Of a DNA stretch of 64,000 nt, positions 15 through 58,984 are shown piece by piece. Position numbers and translations under genes: made by a program. Below the pieces are notes generated by a model, which was not told where the DNA came from, made no database searches, and saw only the letters and a program-made list of their open reading frames with translations. Origin of the DNA: Candidatus Dojkabacteria bacterium (GTDB taxonomy: Bacteria; Patescibacteriota; Dojkabacteria; B142; OLB20); contig DAOMOX010000001.1 in assembly GCA_035444565.1 (NCBI GenBank), forward strand, positions 59,987-123,986. The letters are read 5' to 3'. Numbering within the stretch: position 1 is the first letter of the stretch; the number at the start of each line of letters is the position of its first letter.

Positions 15-788
15 ATGCTAGCAAGATTAAGTGAAGAAGTTGCAATGGTAGTTCCAAGTTCAGTATTTTCGAATCATTTCCATGATGGATATGGGGTAGT
101 AGAAAGAGGTGGATTCCCCTGGAAAGTTATTCCTGCACAAACCAAGCAAGGTTATGAATTAATTCCCCCAAAAGAATATTACAGGATAGATTTCAGACAA
201 ATATCAGAAGTTTATGTACCTGAATATGCATCAGTTCAAGGAGGACAAGTTGGAGTTCGTTTTCAATGGGACATCACAGGAAACAAACCTTCATTAAGGT
301 TGTTTGACATAAGTTGCGCGGGTACCGCAGCAAATAAAACTAGATTTATACGGGCAAAAGACGATCCACAATATTTTAAACCCAGTCAATTTGGAGTTAA
401 CCTACAAAACACAAGTGTATTTAAACCTCTAAAAGCTCCTGCTTTGCTTCCACATCCCCGAATAGTTTACGACTTCAACGAGAGCGATTTACAAACACAA
501 AAGAGTGCAAATCCAGAGGATAAACTTAGTGGAAAGTATTACGTTGGAAGTGGAGGACAGCAAATTATTTTTCCAGGTCCTTCAACAAATAATTCCGTAT
601 CTTCTATGACCTTTAATGTTGAAGTATCAAGTATTGAATATACGATAAATTCAATCTTTGATGATAATACTATAGGTATACATCTCAGGATTCCACTTGT
701 TGTTGAAGATTTTCGTAATCCTCATATTGACATAAGGTCAGTAGATAGGTTCATTGGAAATATTGCATCAATTATCCTTCCAAAGTAA
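15..788 (+). CDS. hypothetical protein; may be the 3' part of a gene that starts before the window
   Basis: Long ORF with coding-like composition. No motif I recognise. The ATG at 15 may be internal. Confidence 0.4.
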   Translation: MLARLSEEVAMVVPSSVFSNHFHDGYGVVERGGFPWKVIPAQTKQGYELIPPKEYYRIDFRQISEVYVPEYASVQGGQVGVRFQWDITGNKPSLRLFDISCAGTAANKTRFIRAKDDPQYFKPSQFGVNLQNTSVFKPLKAPALLPHPRIVYDFNESDLQTQKSANPEDKLSGKYYVGSGGQQIIFPGPSTNNSVSSMTFNVEVSSIEYTINSIFDDNTIGIHLRIPLVVEDFRNPHIDIRSVDRFIGNIASIILPK

Positions 789-858
789 CCTAAGAAATAA
801 ATTAAATTGAATCAAGAAAAGAGTATAATATAGTAATCTTATTTTTTACCCCCTATAA

Positions 859-1233
859 ATGAACAAATCCCAAAACGGATATCTCGACAACATTGAGCGA
901 GAAACTGAGGAGAATACCAGTTACAGAAAAGTTCTTTTTACTGGTGAATACTCACAATTAGTTTTGATGTCGCTTAAACCAGGCGAAGAAATCGGAAAAG
1001 AAGTACATGAAGGCCACGATCAATTTTTCAGAATCGAGACTGGTGAAGCCGAAGTTTTAATCGGAGACGAAGTCTTAAAAGCTGGTGCAGATGATGCAAT
1101 TATTATTCCATCAGGAGTGAAGCATAACGTCACCAATATCTCGGAGACTGAAGATTTGAGATTATATACTATATACTCACCTGCAGAGCATGCGGATGGA
1201 CTTGAGCAGGTGGAAAAACCGGAGGAAGATTGA
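859..1233 (+). CDS. cupin domain protein
   Basis: 124 aa. Two-His cupin motifs 'GEEIGKEVHEGHDQFF' and 'IIPSGVKHNVTN'. Preceded by an AT-rich promoter-like region. Confidence 0.65.
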   Translation: MNKSQNGYLDNIERETEENTSYRKVLFTGEYSQLVLMSLKPGEEIGKEVHEGHDQFFRIETGEAEVLIGDEVLKAGADDAIIIPSGVKHNVTNISETEDLRLYTIYSPAEHADGLEQVEKPEED

Positions 1234-1280
1234 GGAATTAAGAGATTAAGGGATTAAGGAATTAAGAAATTAAGAGATAA
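1234..1280. repeat. Tandem 7-8 nt repeat (attaagRga), about 6 copies
   Basis: gaggaattaagagattaagggattaaggaattaagaaattaagagataa, directly after the cupin stop codon. Confidence 0.8.
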
Positions 1281-1328
1281 TTTTATTGGAGTTGGATTAG
1301 ATCTGAAATTGTGAGTTCGGAATGATTG

Positions 1329-3083
1329 CTACTTTCTGAGTTTTACTTTTAACATTCGAAAGTGTTCTCTCTTTAGCTTATTCCCATTTATTACGAAGAA
1401 TCCGACAGACATTAATACTAGCCCTACCAATGGCGACTCAACAAGAGTATTCCCAGTATCTACAAGATCCACATTTATTCCCAACGTCATCTGAGGATAA
1501 GTTATCACTTCCCCTCCCACAGTCGTCGCAGTAATTGTCACTGTATGAAGTCCATCTTCAATGTATGCGAAAGTACACTCGAAATTACCATCAACATCGG
1601 CTGTAGTTTCGCAAATTTTAGGATCTGAGTTTACTACAATTCTTACAAAAGCTAGAGGGTGGGTTATTCCAGTAAATTTGATGTTATTGTTACCTTGGTA
1701 ATAGTATGCAAATACATTTTTGAGGACTTCAATTGCATTTATGTTGGTGATTTTAAGACTCACAGATGTTGAAGGTATGATTGTTGGTATAGAGGTGGGT
1801 GTAATTGTAGGCACTATAGTCGGAGTAGGTAATTGTGAATTTATATCAAACATCATCAACTTTGTTGAATTCTCACTGCCTGTAGGATTGAAAAAGAATT
1901 TATCGTTTATAATTTTATAGTTCCAAATATCAGTATGACCATTTGTGTTTAAGTCGACACCTAAAAATGTACCTTCCGTAGTACCATCACTTACCCATAT
2001 TTCTTGGCCGTGTACTCCATCATCTATCAGAAGGTAAAGTTTTTGGTTAAAGGTTTTCATAAAACTTGCAGGATTTCCCGTCCAAGTCTTTATTAGGGAT
2101 AATCCTGTCTCGGTTCCATCGGTTTTCCATAGTTCGGTAGAATTAGCAATAAAATATAATTCACTATCCAGTGTATTAAATGCATTTGGAGCACTACCTG
2201 TTATAGGGTTAATGTCATGAACTAAAACCGTTCCATCCTGACTCCCGTCCGTTTTCCACAACTCATTACCTTCTAAGAGGGTATTCGCAGTGAAATATAA
2301 TTCGTTCTTGTAATAATAAAAATTATTTGGATCTGAGGTATTAAAGGTATTGATATTTTTCACCATTGTTGTGCCAGATTCGGTTCCATCTGTTCTCCAT
2401 AATTCTTTATCGCCATCAGTATCCTCAGCTGAGAAGTACATAAAGCCATTATATTCTGCTAACTCCAAATAGTAACTTGAATTATAATTCTTGAAATTAC
2501 CCGATTCATTTATATCTTTTAATAATCTTGTTCCTAAGGTAGTACCATCAGAAACCCAAAGCTCATTTCCATGTACACAATCATATGCTGAGAAGTAGAG
2601 TAAATCATTCACCCCAAATTGCATATTTGTGTTATAACCTCCGTTATTCAATTCCAGCGACATCAGTCCAAATGGATCTTGTTTTGAACCATCTGGCCCA
2701 ATATAGATATCTTTCACCAATACGGTTCCTGATGGGGTTCCATCTGTTTTCCAAAGTTCACGCCCATGTGTTCCATCGTCAGCATAAAACATTAGTTCAT
2801 TTCCCGTATTTTGAAAAGCAAAGGGCATTGATGAAGAAATCCCAGGATTAATGTCTTTCACTATGTAAGTGCCTTGTTCCGTTCCATCAGTTCTCCATAA
2901 TTCTTCACCATTAATTGCATCAAAATTACTAAAATAGAGTACGGAATTAAACTCTGTCGCATTTAAGAAAGTTGAATTACTGGGAGAATCCGTAGCGAGT
3001 GTTGTTACCCTTAAAGTTCCATTCGAAGTACCGTCTGATTTCCATAACTCGTAACTTCCTTCTGCCCATCGAACAAAATACAA
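1329..3083 (-). CDS. Secreted ELWxxDGT-repeat surface protein with PT-rich linker, Ig-like C-terminal region and sortase-like sorting signal (LVDTG, TM helix, basic tail)
   Basis: At least 11 repeats of 'ELWKTDGTxxGT'. PT-rich linker 'PTPTIVPTITPTSIPTIIPS'. C-terminus 'LVDTGN..LVGLVLMSVGFFV..KLKREHFRMLKVKLRK'. The ORF begins on a TTG. Confidence 0.6.
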   Translation of the reverse strand: MYFVRWAEGSYELWKSDGTSNGTLRVTTLATDSPSNSTFLNATEFNSVLYFSNFDAINGEELWRTDGTEQGTYIVKDINPGISSSMPFAFQNTGNELMFYADDGTHGRELWKTDGTPSGTVLVKDIYIGPDGSKQDPFGLMSLELNNGGYNTNMQFGVNDLLYFSAYDCVHGNELWVSDGTTLGTRLLKDINESGNFKNYNSSYYLELAEYNGFMYFSAEDTDGDKELWRTDGTESGTTMVKNINTFNTSDPNNFYYYKNELYFTANTLLEGNELWKTDGSQDGTVLVHDINPITGSAPNAFNTLDSELYFIANSTELWKTDGTETGLSLIKTWTGNPASFMKTFNQKLYLLIDDGVHGQEIWVSDGTTEGTFLGVDLNTNGHTDIWNYKIINDKFFFNPTGSENSTKLMMFDINSQLPTPTIVPTITPTSIPTIIPSTSVSLKITNINAIEVLKNVFAYYYQGNNNIKFTGITHPLAFVRIVVNSDPKICETTADVDGNFECTFAYIEDGLHTVTITATTVGGEVITYPQMTLGINVDLVDTGNTLVESPLVGLVLMSVGFFVINGNKLKREHFRMLKVKLRK

Positions 3084-3368: not shown

Positions 3369-6024
<2,656 letters not shown>

Positions 6025-7479
6025 TTAATCTAGATATGATTTAATAATAGTGTTAATTTCTTCGGCTAATTCACCTTCTACTTTTTCTTTACCTGTGTTC
6101 AATCTTTCCCAAACCTTTGGATATTTAGTCTTTAATGTAAGAATAATTTGCTTTTTCCAAGGTCCAATTTCATTCAATGGCATTTCATCAAGGAATCCCT
6201 GACTTGCTGAGTACATAATCACTATCTGCTCAGGAGCTGGTAGTGGATTGTACTGAGCTTGTTTGACTGCTTCGGTGATATGTTCACCTCGAATCAATTG
6301 AGCTTTTGTAGCTTCATCAAGTTCTGAACCTAATTGAGCGAATACTGCCAATTCTCTAAATTGTGCAAGATCAAGTTTAACTTTACCAGCAACACTTTTC
6401 ATCGTTTTTGTTTGAGCAGCACCTCCGACACGAGATACTGAAAGACCTACGTTAAGTGCAGGTTTCTGACCAGCGTTGAATAAATCTTGATCAAGATAAA
6501 TCTGACCGTCTGTAATAGAGATAACGTTTGTAGGAATGTATGCTGACAAGTCGTTTGCTTGAGTTTCAATGATTGGAAGTGTCGTAATCGAGCCTCCACC
6601 AAGAGCATCAGAATACTGCAGTGCTCTCTCTAGTAGTCTTGAGTGAAGATAAAAAACATCTCCAGGATAAGCCTCTCTACCAGAAGGTCTTTTCAATAAT
6701 AACGACATTTGTCTATATGCATTTGCATGCTTGGTAAGATCATCTATAACAACAAGAACATCCTGGCCTTTTTCTGCAAAATATTCTGCAATGGCAGTAC
6801 CTGCGTATGGAGCTAGATATTGTTGTGTTGCTGGATCATTTGCAGATGCTACAACTACTGTTGTGTATTCCATCGCATCTTTTTCTTTCAATTTTCTGAC
6901 AATATTTGCAACATTTGAAGCTTTCTGACCGACTGCTACATAAACACATAGGCAGTTTTTGCCCTTTTGGTTGATAATAGCATCCACTGCGATAGCGGTT
7001 TTACCAGTCTGTCTGTCTCCGATAATTAATTGCCTTTGTCCTCTACCAATTGGAATCAAAGCATCAATAACTAAAATTCCAGTTTCTATAGGTCTTTCGA
7101 CATCTTTTCTCTCGATGACACCAGGAGCTTTCTTCTCCATAGGCATCATTTTCGCATCTTGACCATATTGAATCTCAACACTACTGTCTTGAACTTCTCC
7201 TAAAACATTGATTACTCTTCCGAGAACATTGTCATCGACTTTAATTGAAGGTAATTCCCCAGTTGATTCTACGCTTTGGCCTTGCATTACTTCGTCAAGG
7301 TGATCGATCATAACTCCTTTTACGACATCTTCTTCGAGGTTCAATGCTAAAGCTCTAGCGTATTTATTTTCATCAATTTTGACTCTAATTAACTCACCAG
7401 CACCTACAGACGACAATCCTGATACTGTAACAATACCTTCATCAATCGAGATTACTTTTCCAGTCGTTACATTTGCCAT
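6025..7479 (-). CDS. atpA: F0F1 ATP synthase alpha subunit
   Basis: 484 aa. Walker A 'GDRQTGKT', and conserved 'ITDGQIYL' and 'SVSRVGGAAQ' blocks. Confidence 0.95.
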   Translation of the reverse strand: MANVTTGKVISIDEGIVTVSGLSSVGAGELIRVKIDENKYARALALNLEEDVVKGVMIDHLDEVMQGQSVESTGELPSIKVDDNVLGRVINVLGEVQDSSVEIQYGQDAKMMPMEKKAPGVIERKDVERPIETGILVIDALIPIGRGQRQLIIGDRQTGKTAIAVDAIINQKGKNCLCVYVAVGQKASNVANIVRKLKEKDAMEYTTVVVASANDPATQQYLAPYAGTAIAEYFAEKGQDVLVVIDDLTKHANAYRQMSLLLKRPSGREAYPGDVFYLHSRLLERALQYSDALGGGSITTLPIIETQANDLSAYIPTNVISITDGQIYLDQDLFNAGQKPALNVGLSVSRVGGAAQTKTMKSVAGKVKLDLAQFRELAVFAQLGSELDEATKAQLIRGEHITEAVKQAQYNPLPAPEQIVIMYSASQGFLDEMPLNEIGPWKKQIILTLKTKYPKVWERLNTGKEKVEGELAEEINTIIKSYLD

Positions 7480-7500
7480 TTTTTTGTATGCTAATAATTA

Positions 7501-7863
7501 TTATGCTGATTTTTGTTTTTTGGCGATAAGCTCTTTTACCTCATCCAACATAGTCTTTGACTTTTCTTTTGCTGTTTCTACAATTGATTTTGCCTCTGTA
7601 TTAGCTTGGCTAATAATTTCCTCTGCTTGTAGTTCCGCTTTCTCTATCAATTTTGCTTCTTTCTCCTTTGCTTCCTTTTCTAGCTCTGCTTTGTGCATTT
7701 CGATTTCTGCTTGGAGTTTAAGATTGTCCTCAAGAAGCTTTTTTCGAGCATTGATATTCTTCAAAAGTGGAGGTACGAGAAATTTATTCAACACTACAAA
7801 TAGAACTGCGAACAGTACTAGATATATGATGAAACTTAGTAAATTGAATCCTAGTGCTTGCAT
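7501..7863 (-). CDS. atpF: F0 ATP synthase b subunit (short, 120 aa)
   Basis: N-terminal TM helix then a charged coiled coil ('LNKFLVPPLLKNINARKKLLEDNL'). Only 22 nt separate it from atpA, leaving no room for a delta gene. Confidence 0.8.
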   Translation of the reverse strand: MQALGFNLLSFIIYLVLFAVLFVVLNKFLVPPLLKNINARKKLLEDNLKLQAEIEMHKAELEKEAKEKEAKLIEKAELQAEEIISQANTEAKSIVETAKEKSKTMLDEVKELIAKKQKSA

Positions 7864-7882
7864 GATAATTTTTGTTTAATAA

Positions 7883-8131
<249 letters not shown>

Positions 8132-8145
8132 TTAAAAAATATTAA

Positions 8146-9081
8146 TTATGAATGATGATGTTCGATTGCCAAATTGATAAAGACAGCCGTTAACATGAAA
8201 AATACTAACGCCTGAATAACCCCCACGAATAATTCGAGTCCGAGGAAAGGCAATGTTGCGACACCGAATGAAATTGCTGTAATAACCACGAGCAGAACCT
8301 CTCCTGCGAAGATGTTTCCAAACAACCTGAAAGAGAAAGATACAATCTTTCCAATTTCTGAAATTAATTCCAGAATACCGACTACAAAGTTAATAGGACC
8401 GTTGAAGTTAATGTATTTGCTCAAGTAAGCGAGTTTATTTGTTTTGAATCCGATAAAGTTTGTGACCAATACTGAGATAAGTGCTAGTGCAATACCTGCG
8501 GAAAGATCCGCAGTTGGAGCTCTAAACATATGTGTGAAGCTACCGGTTGTGATTCCTGAAGTAGTCAAATAGCATTTGCCCTTTAATAGACATCCGAAAG
8601 TTGGTTCTACTTCTTCTTCGACTGTAGCTGTTTCTGATAATACTGCACCTCCATCTGTGTTTTCGATTATTTCTGAATTAGAAGATGCAGTGTATTCGAC
8701 GCTTGTCTCTTCGGTATGTTCTTCTTCACCAACTAGACCAATTGAAGATATTCCAGGCAGAAGTGGGAACCAGTTTGAAACTAAGATGAAAACGAAAAAT
8801 GTGAGTAAAAAGGAGAAATATTTCAATGCGTTTTTCTCTCCCATAATGCTCTCGACCAAACCGAACAGTCCACCTATGAACATTTCTAGAAACAATTCAA
8901 ACTTTGAAGGCTTGAGTGCGTTAAAGTTCTTACTAAATATGACTATCAAGATGATAGTCGGAATCAACACAAATAATGCTGTGTAGAGTGAGTTCGTGAT
9001 TCCTTGGGAAAAAAGATTGAATAAAACTTCTGGTTGAAAACTGATATGTACTTCCACGGTTAAAAATAGCTTAAGGAGCAT
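8146..9081 (-). CDS. atpB: F0 ATP synthase a subunit with an acidic ~70-aa insertion
   Basis: Conserved 'FSFRLFGNIFAGEVLL' arginine motif. An E/T/S-rich insertion ('GEEEHTEETSVEYTASSNSEIIENTD...') lies between TM helices. Confidence 0.85.
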   Translation of the reverse strand: MLLKLFLTVEVHISFQPEVLFNLFSQGITNSLYTALFVLIPTIILIVIFSKNFNALKPSKFELFLEMFIGGLFGLVESIMGEKNALKYFSFLLTFFVFILVSNWFPLLPGISSIGLVGEEEHTEETSVEYTASSNSEIIENTDGGAVLSETATVEEEVEPTFGCLLKGKCYLTTSGITTGSFTHMFRAPTADLSAGIALALISVLVTNFIGFKTNKLAYLSKYINFNGPINFVVGILELISEIGKIVSFSFRLFGNIFAGEVLLVVITAISFGVATLPFLGLELFVGVIQALVFFMLTAVFINLAIEHHHS

Positions 9082-11640: not shown

Positions 11641-12045
11641 TTAGGAATCTAATTCCTGTGAAATTTTGTTACTTTTCTTCGTGCTATAAATCAATAACCC
11701 AATCACCACTGAAAAAGTTACCAACTGAGGAAATGACGAAAGTAGTAATTTTGATTCGTCGTTCATCAAAGCGAGTATGGCAAAAATGAGAATATTTGTA
11801 ATAAGCGATAAAAGCGAGAATAATATAAACATATTATTCATTACCCCTCTGATTGCTTGAAATCCGAGAAACATTCCCAACAAGAAAATAACACCAGCAC
11901 TCTGATACCATGATATCGTTGCTATCAATTTAAGTTCAGATTGATCACTCGCAAATTCATTTAGGAAATTCTCTCTACCCCAGATAATATGTACAAATGA
12001 CATTAAAATTAAAATTGCACTGGAAATAAGTAGTGGCTTTTTCAT
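11641..12045 (-). CDS. integral membrane protein (4 predicted TM helices)
   Basis: 134 aa with a hydrophobic segment pattern. Confidence 0.5.
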   Translation of the reverse strand: MKKPLLISSAILILMSFVHIIWGRENFLNEFASDQSELKLIATISWYQSAGVIFLLGMFLGFQAIRGVMNNMFILFSLLSLITNILIFAILALMNDESKLLLSSFPQLVTFSVVIGLLIYSTKKSNKISQELDS

Positions 12046-12200
12046 AGTTATATTGATGATGAGTAACTAAGTATATGGGGAAATGATATTTGTATCAAGT
12101 TATTACCATTACGGTCATGAATCGAGAATGTCCATTTCGATTAAACTAGCAATCTAAAACTCAGATTAATTTAACCAAGTCCTGCTACATACTGTAATCC

Positions 12201-12485
12201 CTATGTGTGACCATGTTCTTCAAATCTTCGCTCATAAGGATTATTTGATGTAACAATATCCTCAAGAGGGATTTGACTTAAACCATGAATTAAACCTAAT
12301 AAAAAACATTCTTCTAACTCTTTTCTACTTTCATCTTCAAATCTATACCTCCTTGGTCCTATATCTATTTAGGAAGGTTCGTTCTGATATCTGGTATCGA
12401 ACTCTGCTTGGGCTGCTTCACTCCTTAGGATATTATCAATATCCCCATCATTTAACGAAGGTTTGCTGGGATTTAAATCTGGCAT
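12201..12485 (-). pseudogene. Small gene interrupted by a single in-frame TAA (38 aa + stop + 55 aa)
   Basis: 'MPDLNPSKPSLNDGDIDNILRSEAAQAEFDTRYQNEPS*IDIGPRRYRFEDESRKELEECFLLGLIHGLSQIPLEDIVTSNNPYERRFEEHGHT' reads through in one frame except for a TAA at 12370-12372. Confidence 0.35.
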
Positions 12486-12644
12486 AAATAAAGGATAAGA
12501 AATATATCGGGATTATACAGCTACATAACCAGATTGTAAAATCACTAGTGGCTTTTCTATTTATCACAGAAAAGATTGCTCGTCATTGTTATACTCCGAT
12601 CTTCAGTTCTTAATTTTGTTCCGAGTAAAGTTTCCCACTAAAAA

Positions 12645-12686
12645 CCTCAGTTTCTAGAACACTTTTTGATATAATCTATTTCGTGA
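12645..12686 (+). promoter_or_regulatory. Promoter-like repeat copy 1 (extended -10 'TGaTATAAT')
   Basis: 'cctcagtttctagaacactttttgatataatctatttcgtga' is 34/42 identical to the copy at 12834-12875. Extended -10 at 12667-12675. Confidence 0.45.
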
Positions 12687-12743
12687 TTTGTAGTTGTATC
12701 CCGTACAAATTCACTCACAAGTTCGCTCTTTTACGGGACACTC

Positions 12744-12762
12744 CCCCGGATTAAATCCGGGG
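12744..12762. repeat. Perfect hairpin CCCCGGAT-taa-ATCCGGGG inside a possibly structured ~150-nt intergenic transcript
   Basis: Palindrome seen directly. An upstream 7-bp stem 'tcccgta...tacggga' (12699-12742) and downstream 'gatttaatcccgg' echo it. Confidence 0.5.
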
Positions 12763-12833
12763 TTGTTACACCTCATTTTGTTTCTTCGTTCCTTGTTCAG
12801 TGATTTAATCCCGGACAATTTTCTTATTTAATC

Positions 12834-12875
12834 CCTCAGTTTCTAGTTTACAATTTGATATAATCTCTTACGTGA
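12834..12875 (+). promoter_or_regulatory. Promoter-like repeat copy 2, directly upstream of the tRNA-His 5' fragment, hairpin and GIY-YIG gene
   Basis: 'cctcagtttctagtttacaatttgatataatctcttacgtga'. Confidence 0.45.
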
Positions 12876-12882
12876 CAAATTT

Positions 12883-12905
12883 GGTGGCAATAGTTCAGTT
12901 GGTTA
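12883..12905 (+). repeat. Partial duplicate of the tRNA-His 5' end (G-1 plus 22 nt; 22/23 identical to 13188-13210)
   Basis: 'ggtggcaatagttcagttggtta' versus 'ggtggcaatagctcagttggtta' in the intact tRNA. Confidence 0.8.
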
Positions 12906-12925
12906 CCTGCCTGCCGGCAGGCAGG
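12906..12925. repeat. Perfect 20-bp palindrome CCTGCCTGCC/GGCAGGCAGG
   Basis: Seen directly. Lies between the tRNA fragment and the GIY-YIG ORF. Confidence 0.85.
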
Positions 12926-12947
12926 GAGCGCCGATTTATTTGATAAA

Positions 12948-13211
12948 ATGTTTTATATATACATAATTCAAAGCAAAAAGGATCATAAGTTGTATACTGG
13001 TTACACCAAAGACATTGATAAGAGAGTGAGTGACCATAATCTAGGTAAAGTGAAATCAACAAAGGCCAGAATACCTTTTGAGTTAGTTTATAAAGAAATA
13101 TTTAGAACCAAGGAAGAGGCAATCGATAGAGAAAAAGAATTAAAAACTGGTCAATGGAGGGAATTGATAAAAGAATTTATCAAAGATGGTGGCAATAGCT
13201 CAGTTGGTTAG
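12948..13211 (+). CDS. Small GIY-YIG nuclease superfamily protein (YhbQ/UPF0213-like)
   Basis: 'FYIYIIQSKKDHKLYTGYTKDIDKRVSDHN' is a canonical GIY-YIG module followed by a conserved Glu. The 3' end overlaps the first 24 nt of tRNA-His. Confidence 0.75.
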   Translation: MFYIYIIQSKKDHKLYTGYTKDIDKRVSDHNLGKVKSTKARIPFELVYKEIFRTKEEAIDREKELKTGQWRELIKEFIKDGGNSSVG

Positions 13212-13265
13212 AGCGCCTCTCTGTGGAAGAGGAGGTCGTGGGTTCGAGTCCCATTTGCCACCCCA
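13188..13265 (+). tRNA. tRNA-His (anticodon GTG) with genome-encoded G-1 and 3' CCA
   Basis: Manual fold. G-1 precedes acceptor GTGGCAA/TTGCCAC. D arm GCTC-AGTTGGTTA-GAGC. Anticodon stem CCTCT/AGAGG with loop cTGTGga. T arm GTGGG-TTCGAGT-CCCAT. Discriminator C73 then CCA. G-1:C73 is the tRNA-His identity element. Confidence 0.9.
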
Positions 13266-14714
13266 TGTAGGACGCTGGTTCATTTCCACTAATGTAGAGA
13301 AGGGTATTTTATAATCATAGTGCAGTTTTGCACCATCCCAGTTAGCGTTCGATAGTACAAGATTCACAATTTTCGATTTATCGGCGTTATTTTCTTCTCC
13401 TTCTTGTAAAAATAGTTCATGAGCCTCTTGTGAAAGTTCGACAATTTTGTTTGCAGTTGTAAAGAAATTCTTATCCGCTAAATCAATATTCTTTAGCTTT
13501 GTAGTAATCATTCTAATCTCATTAGAGTATTCAGCATACTTAACATCATAGAGGTCTTTAGATATCTTCTCATCAAGATATTCATCATACATTTTGGAAA
13601 GTCTATTCCTTAGTTTGATTTTTCTATCCTGGAGTTCTTTTATTAGATCTTCAGAATAACCAGCCCTATCATTGTTAGTTTTCTTAATTGTTTCTTTAAG
13701 CTCTAATGCTATTTGAGGCTTAATCTTTATTTGTTTAAGTGCCTCTGCTATCTGCTCTGTTAATATTTCTTCCCTAACATAGCTTACAGCGTGTTTTTTT
13801 CTGCCCTGACTACAGCTATAGTAGTGAAAGCCTTTATGTCTTTCGGGGACCATTGAACACCCACAGATGGAGCATTTTATCAATCCCCGATATATGAAAT
13901 TGATTTTACCCATGAGTTTAACAGGATTAATTAATCTATTGGACCTGATATCCTCTGCTTTCCTGAAGAGTTCTTCAGATATTATTTGAGGATAAACATG
14001 CTTGTATTTAATATTCTTTTTCTTGTATGTAGCAATACCTATGTAAAAGTCATCCATTAAAATTCTACCTATCTTACTGCTCACTAGCTTTACATTATCT
14101 TCTTTGAGGGATTGAACAATCTCTCTAATAGACATACCATCATATACATAAAGATTAAAAATCTTCTGAACTACCTTAGAGGTAAACTCATCTACTACAA
14201 TATTATTGGGAACGTTTTTGTATCCATAAGGGGCTTTACCGAGTGATAAACCCTTTGATATCCTTTCATTAATAACCTTCTTAACGTTATCAGAAACGGA
14301 TAGTGCATAGCTTTTAGCAAACATTACCCCCATATCCCACCTCAATAACTCATGGCTCCTGGAGTCCTGGTTAATAACTAGATTTTCTGCTATGAAATGG
14401 ACCTCTATTTTATTGGATTTTCGTAAATCATCGAGTGCTACACTATCTCCGAAGTTACGCATACCTCTATCAATGGTATCAAACACTAATGCTACAACGG
14501 AGTTGAGTTCATCAACACGTTTCAACATCTCTTTGAAGGTTTTACGTTCATGCCTTCTACTTGCAGTTTCTACAACTTGATAAATATCTTTAGGAGATTG
14601 TATGAAGAGGTCGTTTTTTTCAAGGTAGGAATATACCCTCTTGAGTTGTGAAGGGATGGAGAAATTATCGCTTTGGTCTGGAGTTGATACTCTAGTAAAT
14701 ACGAAAGCCCTCAA
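13200..14714 (-). CDS. Large serine recombinase (phage integrase)
   Basis: N-terminal resolvase catalytic domain 'FVFTRVSTPDQ'. Central recombinase domain. Zinc ribbon 'CSICGCSMVPERHKGFHYYSCSQ'. C-terminal coiled coil. The 3' end overlaps the complement of tRNA-His. Confidence 0.85.
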   Translation of the reverse strand: MRAFVFTRVSTPDQSDNFSIPSQLKRVYSYLEKNDLFIQSPKDIYQVVETASRRHERKTFKEMLKRVDELNSVVALVFDTIDRGMRNFGDSVALDDLRKSNKIEVHFIAENLVINQDSRSHELLRWDMGVMFAKSYALSVSDNVKKVINERISKGLSLGKAPYGYKNVPNNIVVDEFTSKVVQKIFNLYVYDGMSIREIVQSLKEDNVKLVSSKIGRILMDDFYIGIATYKKKNIKYKHVYPQIISEELFRKAEDIRSNRLINPVKLMGKINFIYRGLIKCSICGCSMVPERHKGFHYYSCSQGRKKHAVSYVREEILTEQIAEALKQIKIKPQIALELKETIKKTNNDRAGYSEDLIKELQDRKIKLRNRLSKMYDEYLDEKISKDLYDVKYAEYSNEIRMITTKLKNIDLADKNFFTTANKIVELSQEAHELFLQEGEENNADKSKIVNLVLSNANWDGAKLHYDYKIPFSTLVEMNQRPTWGGKWDSNPRPPLPQRGALTN

Positions 14715-17425: not shown

Positions 17426-19873
17426 ATGAAATCAAATACATACACTTACAAAGAGTTAATGATAGAAACAATTCGCAGGAGAAGAGAGGAAAAATATAGG
17501 TTTTATGAACCCATTGGTAAGGTTGAGGAGTTTCTTAATAATTTTGGTTCATGTGATTTTTTTGTTTCTGTGCTGAGTGCCGCTAATGGTGTTGGCAAAA
17601 CTACTTTAATAGGGAATATATTAGCTAATCTATTCTATCCGAATAAGAACTCATACTTTCATCAGAAATTGTTTCAAGATTATCCTTTCTCATTAAAGCG
17701 TGGAAGGATAGTTTCTGAACCTACTACCATCAAAGAAACGATTATACCTATGTTAGAGGAGTGGTTAATTCCTGGTACCTACAAGCGTGAAAAAATGGGA
17801 AAGAATTACTACTACCATTGGGAGGTAGAGGGAGGATGGGTTTTCGATATTATGAGTTATGATCAAGCGGTTAAAGAGTTTGAATCTATTACTTTAGGAT
17901 GGTGTCTCTTTGACGAACCACCGCCTGAACCAATTTATAAAGCCACAGTATCACGTATGAGGCGTGGGGGTATCATTGGTATATTTATGACCCCTCTAGC
18001 AGGTTCAGCCTGGATTTATGATGATATTATTGCTAATCAGAACAATGATGAGGGAGAGAGATACTGGAGTACAGCAGAGATGGAGGACGCTTGTTTTCCT
18101 TTATGGATGGAAGTGTTAACAAACCAAGGTTGGAAAAGTTTTAATGATATAGATATCAAAATTGATAAGTATGCAAGTGTAGATTCATTTAATAATAGAT
18201 TCAGCTTCAAAAAATCAACTAGGTTGGTAGAGAAAACCGCTAATGAATTATGCTATCTCAATAGTGGAATTACCTGCACACCAGATCATGACTTTCCCGC
18301 AATTAGAGATGATGGGAAAATACATAGAGTTAAAGCATCACAACTATACAGGGGAAACAAATTACTAACAAGATCTAGAATACACTCCGATAAACTAAAT
18401 TATTCTCCTGATGAAAGGTTTACACCTCTGCAATGGGCAGAGTTTTTAGGGTGGTATATCTCCGAGGGATGCGCTGAAGGGTCAAAGAGTGGAAATAACC
18501 AACACAATCAAGTAATAATTTCTCAAACAAATAAAAGACTCGAACTAGAAACTTTCCTAAATTCTCTCCAGATAGGGTTTAAAAGTAAAAAATCAGGCGA
18601 TAATTGGATATGTGATGAAAAACTTCATCAAATACTTTCACCACTAGGAACAGCAAGAGATAAATATTTACCTTCATATGTGTTTGAAGGGGATTATGAT
18701 TACAGGCATAGACTCCTCGACTCGTTAATAATGGGAGATGGAGATGAGAACGATACTGCATATAGATATAGGACATCTTCAGAAAGATTATCAGACGATA
18801 TACAAATCCTTGCTATGAGTTTAGGTTACAGAACAACAATTACATATCAATCTAATAGGGAAAGATATATTAAAGGTAAAAAACTTCCAGCTATAGGTGG
18901 TGTTTACACTATACGAATACTAAAAAGTAATAAAAACATTTATATTGAAAGAAAACCAGAAATACATACCACAGAACCACAAAAAGTGCGGTGTGTAACA
19001 GTCGAGGATGGCTACATCTTTGTTCGTAACCCGATAGAGAAAGTACCAGTAATAGCAGGGAATTGTATTGAGCATGGAGTTAGAGGTTTCCTACAACACA
19101 AAGATATTGAAAGGATTGTAAATCAGTTCAGCGAGGAAGATAAACAAGCTAGGGTAAAGGGACAATTCCAGCATTTAACAGGCTTAGTATTCAAACAATT
19201 CCAGCCACAAATCCATGTAATAGAACCTTTCGATATAGATATATATAACTATGTAGTAGTGGAGGCACTAGATACTCATCCACGAGTTCCAGATGCTTTG
19301 CTTTATGTAGCAATAAACGAGCAGGGACAGCACTTTGTTATAGATGAATCCTTCGAGAATAACACAACATCACAACTTGCTTTCAAGATTAAACAAAAGA
19401 GGTCTAACTACAGAGTGGTGAAGAAACTTATTGAACCAGCCGCATTTAACCAGGACCAGCATAGAGATTTAAGACAAGGACAATATGCATCCTTAGCAGA
19501 TGAGTTGTATTACGAACATGGATTAGACTTTGAGGCAGGTAGTAAAAGAAGATTAGATGCCATCAAAAGGATTGGGGACTATTTATCCTATCAGAAAGTC
19601 GGGGACCAGTTCATTACATCCCCTAATCTATATATCTTTAGTAGTTGTACGAGATTGAAGTATGAAATTCAGCACTACTTATGGGATGAGTGGAGAGGTA
19701 AGTCGGCTGAATATAGGTCTAAAAAAGAAACACCAATGGACAAGGATGACCACTTGATAGAGGATTTGGGTAGGGTTCTATTAGAGAACGTTCAATTCAC
19801 ACCATATGTTAAGCCATCTTCAATGGACAATAATTCTATTTCTTATAATTCAGATCCATATGCCAAAGTCTAA
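17426..19873 (+). CDS. terL: Terminase large subunit (TerL) interrupted by an intein
   Basis: N-terminal ATPase with Walker A 'AANGVGKTT' and Walker B 'WCLFDEPPP'. C-terminal nuclease region after the intein. The exteins together are ~491 aa, a typical TerL size. Confidence 0.85.
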   Translation: MKSNTYTYKELMIETIRRRREEKYRFYEPIGKVEEFLNNFGSCDFFVSVLSAANGVGKTTLIGNILANLFYPNKNSYFHQKLFQDYPFSLKRGRIVSEPTTIKETIIPMLEEWLIPGTYKREKMGKNYYYHWEVEGGWVFDIMSYDQAVKEFESITLGWCLFDEPPPEPIYKATVSRMRRGGIIGIFMTPLAGSAWIYDDIIANQNNDEGERYWSTAEMEDACFPLWMEVLTNQGWKSFNDIDIKIDKYASVDSFNNRFSFKKSTRLVEKTANELCYLNSGITCTPDHDFPAIRDDGKIHRVKASQLYRGNKLLTRSRIHSDKLNYSPDERFTPLQWAEFLGWYISEGCAEGSKSGNNQHNQVIISQTNKRLELETFLNSLQIGFKSKKSGDNWICDEKLHQILSPLGTARDKYLPSYVFEGDYDYRHRLLDSLIMGDGDENDTAYRYRTSSERLSDDIQILAMSLGYRTTITYQSNRERYIKGKKLPAIGGVYTIRILKSNKNIYIERKPEIHTTEPQKVRCVTVEDGYIFVRNPIEKVPVIAGNCIEHGVRGFLQHKDIERIVNQFSEEDKQARVKGQFQHLTGLVFKQFQPQIHVIEPFDIDIYNYVVVEALDTHPRVPDALLYVAINEQGQHFVIDESFENNTTSQLAFKIKQKRSNYRVVKKLIEPAAFNQDQHRDLRQGQYASLADELYYEHGLDFEAGSKRRLDAIKRIGDYLSYQKVGDQFITSPNLYIFSSCTRLKYEIQHYLWDEWRGKSAEYRSKKETPMDKDDHLIEDLGRVLLENVQFTPYVKPSSMDNNSISYNSDPYAKV
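18092..19063 (+). mobile_element. Intein (324 aa) with a LAGLIDADG homing endonuclease domain, inserted in TerL
   Basis: Block A starts with Cys ('CFPLWMEVLT'). Block B 'GITCTPDHDF'. LAGLIDADG motifs 'LGWYISEGCAEG' and 'LLDSLIMGDGDEN'. Block F 'VRCVTVEDGYIFV'. Block G 'VPVIAGN' is followed by the +1 Cys ('CIEHG'). Confidence 0.8.
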
Positions 19874-30862: not shown

Positions 30863-33800
30863 CTATTTCTTACTTTTGTTTTTATAACGAGTTTTAGTCC
30901 TATCTTTAGACCACTCTGCAAAATCTCTAGGATAATACTTAGGGTTTTCCAAACCTTCAACATTAGTTAGTATTTTTGACCGTAATTTGGAAGCCTCCTC
31001 TTGATTCTTCTCAATATCAACTTCCCTAAACTCATCTAACAAGTCGTCTACATCGTCCGTAATTGCTTTTATCCTATATATTTCTTTGATTTCTGGTTCT
31101 GTAATGTTTTCGTACTCTCCCCTATGATTTTGAACCGAAGAATATTTTTTATCATTCTCGTCACGAGTGTTATAAAAGTCTGTAATTCTTCTATCAGACG
31201 TCAACCAATAATCTCTCTGGAAAGATGTTAAAGGATTCAAATTTTCGGGTTGACCCATCAGCATTTTACTTGCACGTCCGAATGTTCCTGTAACAAAATA
31301 GTCAATCTTAATTGGGCTGAGGTTCATCATTTCGCCCAATTTTTTAGCCAAAGGTGTTGTACCTTCATTATATTGTTCGGCATTTGGTCTGTTGGATAAT
31401 CCCTGATTAACTAGAGGTCTCACTTCTGGATACTCTTTTACATTAAAAATTACATGTGTTGTAGGTTTAAAGAATTGTGGGACCCATGCTAGTGCTGCCT
31501 TAGTAGGTTCTGCTAAATTAAACTGATCTGGAATCCACGAAGTAACTAAATCTATATACTCATCAGAGTCATACTTTGTGTCAAACATAGCTTCGGAAAC
31601 TATCATGTTTAGGACCGTAGCAGGGATTGTAATTGGAGTAGGAACCCTAAATCGCCACAATCCTTTTCCAGAAGGATTGGGGAAATATATAAAGTTTGCT
31701 AACTCCTCAGGTGCCAAACCTTTATACTGTTCTTTCTGATCGTCTGATGAGTTTCTAAATAAGTAATCTAATGAAGCTAGATAGGCTGCCATTAACACTA
31801 GACCTACAAACATTATGCGTTTTCTCCCACCAGGAGTTTTAGAAACTCTTGCAAGTTGATCCAATACTTGAAGACTTGCATTAAAGAACGGAAGTCCTCG
31901 TATATAGACCGCTCCAGTAATATCAGATGATGTACTTCCCCACACACCTGTGTGATGAAAAGGTGCCGTTACACGACCTGCTTCTTCTAATGCAACTACT
32001 TGAGATTTACCTGCTTTTCTAGCTGCAACATACTCAGCAGCCCTTGTAATAATCTCACTAGCAGAAGCTGGTTTCTGTAGAATATCAAGCGCCTTAGACC
32101 CAATTAAGGTGGCTTTATCTATAAGGCTTTTCTCTGATTTAATTTTCTCAAACAACTGACTTGGTGACATTTTTTGCCAACCCATGAAGGTTTGTCTTTC
32201 ACCCCCCATTACTAGGTATTCCTCATAATACTTTGACTCAATACTATTCTTGTTGATTTTTTGTTTAATATATGTACTAAAAGGACTATAGAGGGGAATG
32301 AATTTATTGTATGAGTTCACAGATGCAGTCACCTGGTCCATGAAAAAGTTGGTTATAGTAAATGGAACAAAAGCTCCAGTAGTACCTAAAGTGAACATCC
32401 TAGAAACTGCGAGATACAATTTACTGAACTTACCAATCGATTTATAATCAAGGATATCATCTATTATTGTTTTAACCTCTTTGTTAACCAAAATAGGTTG
32501 TCTCTTGTAATTCAGTCTTGCCATTATTATGTTTGGATCTTTCTCTTGCGGATATGTTACCTTCTCGGAGCTTTTATCATAGAGAATTTTTAATTCTTGT
32601 TCCTGGAAGATATTCGGAATTGCCGCTGAACTACCAAGACCCCCTATGCGGTTATATACAACCTGTCTCATAGACTTCCTGACTATTTCCGAATGGTTAA
32701 TCATGGAGGAGTAAATAGGATTAATGATAGTTCTCTCTGATCCTGTTCTTCTCATAAGAGATGAAATCTTGGTCTTTTTAACCTTACTAGTTGAGGGGAT
32801 GTCTGTTTCTCCAACCAACTCATCATAAAACTGTCTTTTGAATGATGCGTAACCTTGGGTGTTGTTAAGTTTATCGAAAGTTGCTTTGTCTATTAGTTGG
32901 ACTTCTGGGTTGTGTAATAATTCTAAATCAGCCTTAACTAGTGAATCAAACATTTTCTCCTCATATTTATATGCTTCAGAGTTCTGTTTATAGGCATCGT
33001 CTACAACCTGTCGTGAGAAACCATCATTATCAAGTACAGACTTAAACTCTTCATATTCTTTTTCTAGTTTTTGTAATAACCTATTGGTCTCTCTTTTAAA
33101 GCGCTCAAGGTTCATGGCGGTATACTCGGGCTTACCATTTTTGATGGTACTAGGGATTATTTCAATCCCATAATCTTCCTCTAACATGGACTTTAAATCC
33201 CTGTTAAATCTAGATAACTTATTAGGCTCGGTTATTTTATTTAGTGCCTTAACAATCACCTCTAGTTGACCTTTTCTGTTCCCTAATAGATCTAACTCTT
33301 TGTACAGAAAGTGCTGTCTTCTAGCTACTAAATAATATCCAAAACTATCAGCTCTGTTATTCTTTTCTAATCTGTCTATTAAAGTCTTCCAATTATATTC
33401 ATATTTCTTTTGAAAACCCGATTCTAAGTCTGTAAATGCCCAATACCCACGTTTAGTAGAGATATTATTTCCAACTATTCCATTTACTGCCGAATATGCC
33501 CTTGCCCATAAAGATGGATCAATCGACTTATTATCAATCCCCGCTTTCTTGGCTATAACCTCTAATGGATACACCTTATCTGCTAATTGTTGCCTCAACC
33601 TTTCTTGTGAGGTGAAGAAGCTCTTGCGATCTATTCCAGTATCATCACTAGAAACTCTCGTTCCAATCTTATCTAACGACTCCAGACCTTGATAATCTGC
33701 TACTAATTGGTTTAAATCTTCTAACATTTTCCCAATTGTGGGTTCATAGTATTCTCCCTTTGGTTTAAGAAACTCATTAACTAGTAAAGGATATTCTGTC

Positions 33801-58794: not shown

Positions 58795-58895
58795 TTTAGC
58801 AACGAGTCCAACAAGTGACCCCAGTGTTTCTGAGCTTGCGAAGAAATACACTGGGTAAGGTCTGCCGTAGCTTCAGCGAAGGCATGGCCACCCCA
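58795..58895 (+). repeat. Boundary element: 'ggtttagcaacgagtccaacaag' (22/23 identical to 29701-29723) fused to copy 2 of the 78-bp repeat (58818-58895); 'cgagtccaacaagtgacccca' resembles the tRNA-His 3' end
   Basis: Direct comparison with 29701-29723, 53438-53515, 57155-57176 and the tRNA 3' sequence 'cgagtcccatttgccacccca' (16/21). Confidence 0.75.
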
Positions 58896-58984
58896 AGTGT
58901 GACTCTTAGCGGAAACAAACACACTATCAAAAGGTTTAACCCATTCGTAGCTTAGCTTTCCATCCTTTATTTCAAATTCGACTA

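Follow-up and report, generated by a model that had tools for sequence, protein, structure and literature searches.

We have found that the tRNA-His(GUG) gene in a stretch of 64,000 nucleotides (nt) of Candidatus Dojkabacteria DNA, referred to here as the window, probably bears three superimposed and independent layers: a native promoter and leader, a GIY-YIG mini-element and a prophage. The mini-element consists of an orphan fragment of the tRNA, a perfect 20-bp palindrome (PAL, CCTGCCTGCCGGCAGGCAGG) and one open reading frame (ORF) for a GIY-YIG nuclease of 87 amino acids (aa). Comparison with relatives indicates that fragment, palindrome and ORF derive from an insertion that duplicated tRNA positions -7 to +30 and regenerated a complete tRNA. 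The cassette is apparently a member of an undescribed variant of selfish nuclease genes, as judged from sequence comparison. We further propose that Slx1-type GIY-YIG genes of about 85 aa, in units of about 0.3 kb, constitute together with PAL a class of ultra-small mobile DNA that has gone unrecognised, spread over Patescibacteria, other uncultured phyla and the phages of both. Its nuclease would read DNA structure (cloverleaf or cruciform tRNA genes, hairpins) and not a long sequence, its units would nest within tRNA transcription units or between inverted repeats, and PAL would be a non-autonomous partner or the scar of a break. This wider proposal is tentative, and we offer it as a possibility and not as the probable answer. 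What makes the locus interesting is chiefly the palindrome and the pattern seen across the family, and less so the prophage or the promoter repeats.

The tRNA-His(GUG) gene is the sole tRNA gene of the window. The features on its 5' side, and the tRNA itself, are the following.

12615–12686 (core 12645–12686), plus strand: promoter-like repeat 1, the upstream native tRNA-His promoter module, with TATAAT at 12670–12675.
12687–12803, plus strand: leader module A, a hairpin-rich segment, placed by alignment with the leaders of relatives.
12804–12882 (core 12834–12875), plus strand: promoter-like repeat 2 and a short leader, with TATAAT at 12859–12864.
12883–12905, plus strand: orphan copy of the tRNA-His 5' end, positions -1 to 21, GGTGGCAATAGTTCAGTTGGTTA, with one mismatch (C11 to T).
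12906–12925, unstranded: the perfect 20-bp palindrome PAL, which interrupts the orphan copy at D-loop position 21/22.
12926–12932, plus strand: the orphan copy continued, GAGCGCC, positions 22–28/30, matching the intact tRNA at 13211–13217.
12948–13211, plus strand: the nuclease ORF, 87 aa, UPF0213/YhbQ family (bacterial Slx1-like), identified by Pfam PF01541.
13181–13217, plus strand: right-hand copy of the duplication, tRNA positions -7 to +30, the 5' part of the intact tRNA-His.
13189–13265, plus strand, with an encoded G-1 at 13188: intact tRNA-His(GUG), predicted by ARAGORN and matched by the Rfam tRNA model at 70.3 bits.

An earlier note on this DNA, made from the letters alone, had listed several of these features. 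It described a 23-nt copy of the tRNA 5' end, which is present (12883–12905) but is actually part of a 30-nt copy of positions -1 to 30 split by the palindrome. The palindrome itself is perfect, as that note had said, and occurs once in the window (12906–12925). The GIY-YIG ORF, also present in one copy, does run into tRNA-His: the two overlap by 23 nt and the TAG stop codon lies inside the D-loop, such that the last eight codons and the stop are encoded by the 5' part of the tRNA.

Relatives were found and ranked by the identity of a neighboring membrane protein. Occupied and unoccupied alleles are interleaved in this ranking. At 93% identity, locus L011 is occupied and L253 has the fragment and hairpins with no ORF; at 83%, L249 has a different, 79-aa GIY-YIG gene flanked by leader repeats of ~65 nt; relatives at 80%, 79% and 74% (L248, L250–L252 and L247, respectively) are empty, and other relatives at 79% (L001–L008) are occupied. 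The cassette is thus polymorphic for presence and absence at one site for which the exact empty site exists, as is expected of a homing endonuclease gene. In the empty loci L250–L252, promoter 1, leader A and promoter 2 are followed by tRNA-His 18 nt on, and fragment, palindrome and nuclease gene are missing; the site reads promoter 2, then cttttacgtgacaaacat, then the tRNA, and the junction is ...tttacaatttgatataatcttttacgtgacaaacat joined to GGTGGCAATAGC. The orphan fragment is absent from the empty-site relatives. Relative to this site, the window has two extra pieces: the 20-bp PAL and 305 bp, the latter made up of a 268-bp unit that carries the ORF and a second copy of ~37 bp (tRNA -7 to +30). 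Because the insertion duplicated this part of the tRNA, an intact tRNA was restored downstream, and its sequence in the window is identical to that in L250–L252. The upstream 7 nt of the duplication are clearest in L003, where ...TCAAATAT is followed by GG before the intact tRNA, as against ...ACAAATAT followed by GG at the empty sites.

The two tRNA copies of L011 carry different alleles. Its orphan fragment has the acceptor allele GGTGGTTG, as found in L248 and L253, which have no GIY-YIG gene, and the allele of its intact tRNA is GGTGGCAA...TTGCCACC, in which the 3' strand carries the compensating changes. The fragment would therefore be the leftover of the resident gene, and the complete tRNA would have arrived with the ORF. 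Short target-site duplication of the usual transposon kind was not found in comparison with the empty site L252, where ~37 bp (-7 to +30) are duplicated instead. Nor does the cassette encode a recombinase, as a tRNA-targeting integrative element would: the sole integrase is that of the prophage, on the other side of the tRNA, with a 9-bp core. Inverted repeats of the window element are weak, the best pair being AT-rich, 18 nt long and 89% complementary. No group I intron (Intron_gpI) was matched in the window, and the downstream tRNA is uninterrupted; the same search detected a group I intron in L122 at 86 bits as a positive control. RNA-mediated duplication anchored at the mature tRNA ends was considered and rejected because the duplications extend upstream of tRNA position 1, by 7 nt in the window and L003, ~20 nt in L170 and ~65 nt in L249. 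When the region was searched against phage collections, matches were at the level of the tRNA only.

The same 5' side of tRNA-His also holds a second, unrelated lineage of 79-aa GIY-YIG genes (L249, 285–900; L009/L010, 1–484). In L009 and L010 an L249-type remnant, apparently frameshifted, stands in tandem with a cassette of the window type, and forms the upstream flank of the latter. Capture of the cassette by a phage in L009/L010 was rejected as an explanation of that flank, for which the local alignment score with the right arm of the prophage was 28 against a shuffle maximum of 30 and tblastx gave no match.

The ORF product matches PF01541 with E = 4.5e-18 and 65.8 bits, where the cut-off is 22.6, the domain covering residues 1–66 of 87. 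Its closest solved structures, found by phmmer against the PDB, are 1zg2 (BH0048, E = 4.8e-11) and 1ywl (EF2693, E = 4.9e-5), both UPF0213 proteins. Residues Y16, G18, R26, H30 and E62 are invariant in one alignment (A1), and Y3 and Y5 are conserved in a second (A2). With dN/dS (the ratio of nonsynonymous to synonymous substitution rates) of 0.18–0.24 in six comparisons at dS up to 0.56, the ORF is under purifying selection. No Shine-Dalgarno site was found before the ORF, which is uninformative because genes of this organism are largely without such sites. An exhaustive profile search returned 7,986 cluster representatives of the family at 50% identity, almost all of them 80–130 aa long.

The family-wide pattern was established by scanning one genome per species with an alignment of homologues; the figures that follow are for the best 80 of 452 confirmed stretches, 79 of which lie outside the lineage of the window. 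The 80 loci belong to Patescibacteria, Ignavibacteria/Melioribacteraceae, Planctomycetota, Bacteroidota, Poribacteria, Gemmatimonadota and further groups. At 41 of the 79 loci, a same-strand tRNA lies within 170 nt of the ORF (within 60 nt at 34), and none lies there on the opposite strand. Expressed as density, there are 1.81 tRNAs per kb within 170 nt of the ORFs (48 on the same strand, 0 on the opposite) versus 0.10 per kb further off, and many isotypes are represented. Where it could be tested, a partial copy of the adjacent tRNA was found across the ORF at 28 of 40 loci, beyond the 99th percentile of control alignments. Two arrangements occur. In the first, to which the window belongs, the intact tRNA lies behind the ORF, often overlapped by its stop codon, and a 5' fragment lies in front. 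The second is its mirror image, with the intact tRNA before the ORF and a 3' fragment, starting from the T-loop, behind it. In mirror loci L041, L045, L058, L049, L042 and L043 the ATG lies 0–7 nt past the tRNA end, which leaves no room for a separate promoter. GC-rich hairpins stand in, or replace, arms of the partial copies (L060, L077, L058, L066, L034, L014, L170), and tandem repeats or re-insertions of the unit occur in L014, L066 and L199. Related proteins are usually found at the same tRNA; L043 (Leu) and L045 (Glu), 81% identical, are an exception.

Most of the loci that do not adjoin a tRNA show a different bracket. Inverted repeats of 12–22 bp (score >=24) enclose 29 of 36 such loci versus 5 of 250 shifted controls. 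These repeats differ among clades (ACCCCGTTAGAGAT, TCCCGTACGAAAT, ACCCCCACACCAAAT) with their complementarity kept; the units measure 275–320 bp, the right repeat lies within the ORF end, and short direct repeats (TGAA, TGAG, TGAC, TACG) flank the units at gene junctions.

Several individual loci are worth recording. Among loci L012–L090 (e.g. L028, 2978–3260) there are one-ORF units of ~280 bp at stop/start gene junctions with 4-bp flanking repeats, and in L051, L070 and L090 the repeat end appears to rebuild the start codon of the downstream gene. L028 and L031 share 6.2 kb of identical sequence in metagenome-assembled genomes labelled Planctomycetes and Syntrophales, which is probably a binning conflict and not gene transfer. 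In the Poribacteria, L063 (1832–2976) has eleven tandem pseudo-tRNA units with a 107-nt period directly upstream of a family GIY-YIG gene, each with a tight palindromic hairpin in place of the anticodon arm, and L081 has pseudo-tRNAs of the same kind on either side of the gene. The viral contig L122 (IMG/VR, 478–3014) has four elements stacked on one tRNA: a 5' fragment bearing PAL, a GIY-YIG ORF, a tRNA split by an intron, and a serine-recombinase gene that overlaps the tRNA 3' end. The intron is a group I intron (Rfam, 86 bits) in the anticodon loop and carries an HNH ORF.

PAL recurs in comparable positions. It is identical at 20 of 20 positions in four lineages (the window, L011, L009/L010 and L001–L008) at dS up to 0.54, and at dS 0.54 there are no changes in its 20 nt, two in the 30 nt of the fragment and four in the adjoining 15-nt spacer. 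Beside family GIY-YIG genes of other organisms, at different tRNAs, PAL lies in the D-arm of tRNA fragments in L087 and L176 (Ser), L122 (Thr), L199 (Lys, twice), L170 (Asn), L225 (Leu, with an additional variant copy) and L220 (twice within 10 nt). It occupies the same D-loop position of a tRNA-Val fragment in L205, near which no GIY-YIG gene was found. In L042 and L054 a split or extended PAL lies between the ORF and the 3' fragment, and in P0027, a Dojkabacteria-type protein of 62% identity, PAL has been translated as part of an over-extended N-terminus.

PAL is also found well away from these genes. It was matched in 35 viral-contig stretches versus none for half-swapped and none for shuffled-tetramer control palindromes of matched composition, and in at least 120 metagenome stretches, whose mean GC is 44%. 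Of the viral stretches, L122 alone carries a family GIY-YIG gene within the locus that was fetched. About twelve of 169 PAL copies lie in tRNA-derived sequence; in one of them, in L115, PAL forms the long variable arm of a phage tRNA-Met. Its flanks have neither a consensus nor a target duplication. Specificity for tRNA was rejected: deletion of PAL restores a full tRNA in just one of the 169 cases, with about 10 further copies located in tRNA fragments. That PAL arose as an artefact of sequencing or assembly was likewise rejected given the orthologous position of PAL in 11 contigs from different projects and assemblers, its conservation at dS 0.54, the existence of mutated and split variants, and the absence of control hits. 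By its distribution, PAL is best described as a widespread micro-insertion in its own right, enriched in GIY-YIG cassettes and not restricted to them. In the GC-rich viral contigs L091, L096, L099, L112 and L114, PAL sits in iteron-like arrays of short direct repeats, and some GC-rich viral copies are abutted by direct repeats of 7–14 nt.

The mechanism that we propose for the cassette is homing-like, and we infer such mobility from the sequence patterns described above. ORF and tRNA are probably transcribed together from the tRNA promoter, since the ORF has no recognisable promoter of its own, the tRNA has been moved 325 bp from its proximal promoter and the mirror loci leave no room for a separate one. 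RNase P cleavage at G-1 would free the tRNA and end the mRNA within the last ORF codons, removing the stop, such that tRNA processing would set the mRNA ends. The element would spread by "intronless homing", in the manner of free-standing homing endonuclease genes: unoccupied tRNA genes would be broken by the nuclease, and repair from an occupied allele would copy the ORF along with adjacent tRNA sequence (co-conversion). tRNA genes might be preferred for the conserved sequences of their D- and T-loops (A and B boxes) or for their cloverleaf-forming DNA, with a promoter that guarantees expression. PAL may be a separate 20-bp micro-element, or a scar, tied to the nuclease family and persisting in dead tRNA copies.

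Several observations weigh against this proposal. Characterised GIY-YIG homing enzymes, such as I-TevI and the Seg proteins, have a DNA-binding domain that recognises long targets, and the protein here is a bare 87-aa domain in which no second Pfam or NCBIfam domain, and hence no DNA-binding module, was found. The restored tRNA is the empty-site tRNA of L250–L252, from which it follows that immunity of an occupied genome to its own nuclease is not obvious. A 37-bp target duplication is not the product of simple double-strand-break homing, and the inverted-repeat bracketing and short flanking repeats of many members look more like transposition. A sigma-70 match of 10/12 at the ORF start (12940–12967) could be an internal promoter for the tRNA. 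Finally, PAL lies within 500 nt of a family GIY-YIG gene in 9 of the 127 metagenome copies listed (7%), and the link between PAL and the nuclease is therefore statistical only. On account of the missing DNA-binding domain, the immunity problem, the 37-bp duplication and the inverted repeats, we retain a transposon and a domesticated gene as alternatives to homing.

The first of these alternatives, which we regard as unlikely, is that the GIY-YIG unit represents a miniature transposon, of either the cut-and-paste or the copy-and-paste type, in which the nuclease takes the part of the transposase and acts on hairpins or terminal inverted repeats. The other GC-rich hairpins, and PAL with them, would then be ORF-less derivatives, comparable to miniature inverted-repeat transposable elements, or excision footprints, and the tRNA duplication would be a long target-site duplication made by widely staggered cuts. 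Such an element would account for the inverted repeats at 29 of 36 non-tRNA loci (5 of 250 in controls), their clade-specific sequences with complementarity kept in units of 275–320 bp, and the 4-bp flanking repeats. Consistent with it are the identical palindromes at either side of the ORF in L033 and L076, the split PAL halves around inner sequence in L042 and L054, and the fragment and hairpins without an ORF in L253. However, the inverted repeats of the window element are unconvincing, no empty site was recovered for units of the inverted-repeat type, and PAL has inserted without target duplication or flank consensus. In addition, we know of no GIY-YIG transposase, and a 37-bp duplication is, to our knowledge, far longer than known target-site duplications.

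It is quite unlikely that the GIY-YIG protein is a domesticated host factor co-expressed with tRNAs, one that resolves structures at highly transcribed tRNA genes or guards them, as integration hot spots, against invading DNA, with the tRNA fragments left over when tRNA genes are duplicated locally. Against such a factor, close relatives have occupied and empty alleles in interleaved order, two unrelated GIY-YIG lineages are found at the same tRNA-His 5' side (L249; in tandem in L009/L010), closely related proteins occur at different tRNA isotypes and degraded ORFs exist (L225). Prophages moreover integrate with or without the cassette, L251 and L248 having a prophage and no cassette. A host function would nevertheless agree with the purifying selection on the ORF, with the strict same-strand linkage to tRNAs across many phyla, and with the position of the window and L122 cassettes at tRNAs that are also targets of serine-integrase phages. 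It would agree as well with the literature, in which the UPF0213 or bacterial Slx1-like proteins were presented, in 2006, as repair proteins whose inheritance is for the most part vertical (PMC1564403).

We consider it very unlikely that the orphan fragment and PAL are mainly a regulatory 5' leader, either an operator for a dimeric protein or a stabilising or attenuating RNA hairpin, and are kept by selection for control of tRNA-His and ORF expression and not as by-products of mobility. The two are far more conserved than neutral sites, PAL lies ~40 nt downstream of the -10 element, and a perfect palindrome fits a dimeric DNA-binding protein. Conservation of the fragment can, however, be accounted for by gene conversion from the intact tRNA, and the identical 20-mer is present in more than 150 unrelated contexts, mostly far from promoters, tRNAs and GIY-YIG genes, including twice within 10 nt in L220 and in the variable loop of a phage tRNA-Met (L115).

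The view of the earlier note, that fragment, palindromes and doubled promoters are scars of repeated integration of a prophage or island at the tRNA, deserves next to no credence: the tRNA 3' end does serve as an integration site, and a polymorphic one, with at least four downstream contexts that diverge exactly after CCA, but the cassette occurs without a prophage (L002–L004, L011), a prophage occurs without the cassette (L248, L251), the promoter repeats occur in L250 and L252, which have neither, and recombination by the serine integrase shares just 9 bp, at the 3' end. That note had itself named the arrangement in relatives without a prophage as a refutation, and L002, L003, L004 and L011 have fragment, palindrome, GIY-YIG gene and tRNA with the prophage site unoccupied; the duplication is therefore unrelated to the prophage. 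What stands of the suggestion is that the tRNA was hit by insertions, one of them duplicating. The comparison of tRNA-His loci among relatives, which the earlier note had advised, reveals that insertion and no single composite history.

The homing-like proposal may be set against the nearest known systems. Free-standing GIY-YIG homing genes are known in T4-like phages as the Seg family, of which SegB is situated within the cluster of tRNA genes in T4; the DNA-binding domain of Seg enzymes is C-terminal. Like the Seg genes, the genes described here are small, intronless GIY-YIG genes among or beside tRNA genes, vary in presence among close relatives, bear signs of co-conversion (the L011 alleles) and would be expressed by transcription of the host gene. 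They differ in that they encode only an 87-aa catalytic core, of the Slx1/UPF0213 branch, in that insertion at the window locus duplicates and regenerates the tRNA, and in that their hosts are cellular genomes of many phyla. The protein agrees with UPF0213/YhbQ proteins (1zg2, BH0048; 1ywl, EF2693) in family, size, single domain and conserved Y/G/R/H/E residues, and we found neither nesting at tRNAs nor inverted repeats as brackets nor a linked palindrome reported for those proteins. As in tRNA-targeting integrative elements, a direct repeat of partial tRNA flanks the insert and a functional tRNA is restored. In contrast to such elements, the repeat lies on the 5' side (in mirror loci, on the T-loop/3' side), the insert is ~0.27 kb, no integrase is encoded, and the left repeat is broken by a palindrome.

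Under the mitochondrial tRNA punctuation model, RNase P and RNase Z release the mRNAs. The family ORFs similarly lie within 0–7 nt of tRNAs or overlap them, and processing would define their mRNA ends; unlike in that model, the system is bacterial, and RNase P cleavage in the window would take off the ORF stop codon. PAL can be compared with the palindromic GC clusters of fungal mitochondria (GC42 of yeast; those of Neurospora, flanking tRNA genes), which have been proposed to be mobile and can merge or nest (PMC4478555). Both are short GC-rich palindromes scattered in AT-rich genomes, often near tRNA genes. PAL, however, is 20 bp long, loopless, identical across unrelated bacteria and phages, without target duplication or flank consensus, and statistically linked to a GIY-YIG family. 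In none of these nearest known systems do a bare 85-aa nuclease, a split tRNA that is regenerated and a 20-bp palindrome of fixed sequence occur together. No published description of tRNA-nested GIY-YIG elements or of PAL was found in the full-text literature, with subscription journals outside its coverage, and a recent survey of tRNA introns in Patescibacteria leaves such elements unmentioned (PMC13011429).

If the proposed mobility is real, these would be among the smallest known mobile units that code for a protein, ~0.3 kb in size and with a single catalytic domain of 85 aa. In very small genomes they would persist by entering essential tRNA genes while rebuilding them, and would borrow tRNA promoters and processing for their own expression. 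At least part of the "housekeeping" UPF0213/YhbQ family would have to be reinterpreted as selfish DNA. For annotation, the pattern explains orphan tRNA fragments, tRNA-like pseudogenes and over-extended ORF calls beside tRNAs in Patescibacteria. PAL is identical across unrelated bacteria and phages and inserts without target duplication. At the window locus, native, selfish and phage parts have been separated where the whole had resembled one composite scar.

The native layer is formed by the promoter repeats and the hairpin-rich segment. The earlier note had given two ~42-bp promoter-like repeats 190 bp apart; both are present, but their spacing is 189 nt and their similarity extends over 72 nt (12615–12686 and 12804–12875) at 72% identity, with two matches versus none in shuffled sequence. 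Both carry TGnTATAAT with a poor -35 element, and their similarity ends directly past CGTGA. A generic scan for sigma-70 promoters and terminators did not call either repeat, and its matches were at background frequency. Relatives bear the same modules in varied number. L248 has a single promoter module and a 115-nt leader (leader B) directly before tRNA-His, L247 has a tandem pair of promoter-leader units there, and L253 has the same promoter modules with an ORF-less remnant of fragment plus hairpin. L250, L252 and L247 also have no recombinase adjoining the tRNA. The repeats are native, and are not traces of insertion as had been suggested, because they are present in relatives without the nuclease gene (L247, L248, L250–L252), some of which also lack a prophage.

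Leader A contains a hairpin formed by TCCCGTA (12699–12705) and TACGGGA (12732–12738), and a GC hairpin, CCCCGGATTAAATCCGGGG, at 12744–12762, where leader B of relatives has ATAT in the alignment. Relative to leader B, CCCCGGATTAAATCCGGGG is an insertion, the second small one of GC-rich palindromic type at the locus. The ~150-nt hairpin-rich segment had been put forward as a small RNA, which we reject for 12686–12800. Leader A (12687–12803) matched no Rfam family in either gathering or E-value mode, and an Infernal search of Rfam over 12400–13400 and over the whole window gave the tRNA as its sole match. The fold z-score of leader A is -2.3, moderately better than shuffles, and its conservation is no better than that of its surroundings, the near-perfect (100%) identity to L011 spanning the entire 12639–13265 block. 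Given block-wide conservation, a modest fold, no Rfam match and homology to the tRNA-His leader, the segment is a leader module and not a demonstrated small RNA gene. The alignments therefore indicate that promoter repeats and hairpin segment are native tandem promoter/5'-leader modules of tRNA-His.

The remaining features of the window are the following.

3369–9081, minus strand: F-type ATP synthase operon, in the left part of the window, which is host chromosome.
11641–12045: membrane protein gene neighboring the tRNA-His locus, used for finding and ranking relatives; its product is 100% identical to a database protein attributed to a Candidatus Dojkabacteria metagenome-assembled genome, which makes the organism one of the Patescibacteria (CPR).
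13200–14714, minus strand: large serine recombinase (prophage integrase), with Pfam domains Resolvase, Recombinase and Zn_ribbon_recom.
13257–13265: attL core, GCCACCCCA, the last 9 nt of tRNA-His.
13266–58886: prophage of 45.6 kb with portal, capsid, baseplate and RepO genes.
58887–58895, plus strand: attR core, GCCACCCCA, after which the native downstream flank, AGTGTGACTCTTAGCGG, begins.

The prophage has the marks of a serine-recombinase phage, namely the three integrase domains, attL and attR with a short shared core, and an unoccupied attB in relatives. At unoccupied sites (L003, L010, L011, L252, L253) the tRNA is followed by AGTGTGAC..., a flank that recurs in the window at 58896. attL reads ...CATTTGCCACCCCA followed by TGTAGG, attR reads ...GGCATGGCCACCCCA followed by AGTGTG, and the core that they share is 9 bp, GCCACCCCA. 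Since this core lies at the 3' end of the tRNA, the prophage leaves no 5' tRNA fragment. These observations show an ordinary temperate phage with a large serine recombinase at the tRNA 3' end.

The integrase does overlap the tRNA from the other side, as reported earlier, by 66 nt in antisense: its last 22 codons run through the tRNA across attL. The viral contig L126 (IMG/VR, 47.9 kb) encodes a 98%-identical integrase whose ORF continues through a different arm (the attP form), and joining the window arms as in the excised form gives an integrase of 538 aa versus 504 aa in the prophage. On the strength of the L126 tail and the reconstructed 538-aa form, the overlap is a real property: attP sits within the 3' end of the gene for the integrase, whose last 22–56 codons are swapped for antisense-tRNA codons on integration. 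The same integrase/tRNA overlap is present in L001, L005, L007 and L009 and in the unrelated L122. An antisense-tRNA tail (...ALTN* or ...LVTN*) is also found in the unrelated recombinases of L001 and L122.

Besides the ATP synthase operon, the host part to the left of the locus has small ORFs without family matches. The minus strand of 12150–12485 holds a 38-aa ORF and, after it, a RelE/ParE-like frame that lacks a proper start codon; the region resembles a toxin-antitoxin remnant, is absent from L001–L008 and has a diverged copy in L011 and L247. The 45.6-kb prophage looks complete and includes a 2277-aa ORF at 30863–37696. An 815-aa prophage ORF at 17426–19873 has weak Intein_splicing and LAGLIDADG_3 matches, below the Pfam cut-offs, and may hold an intein.

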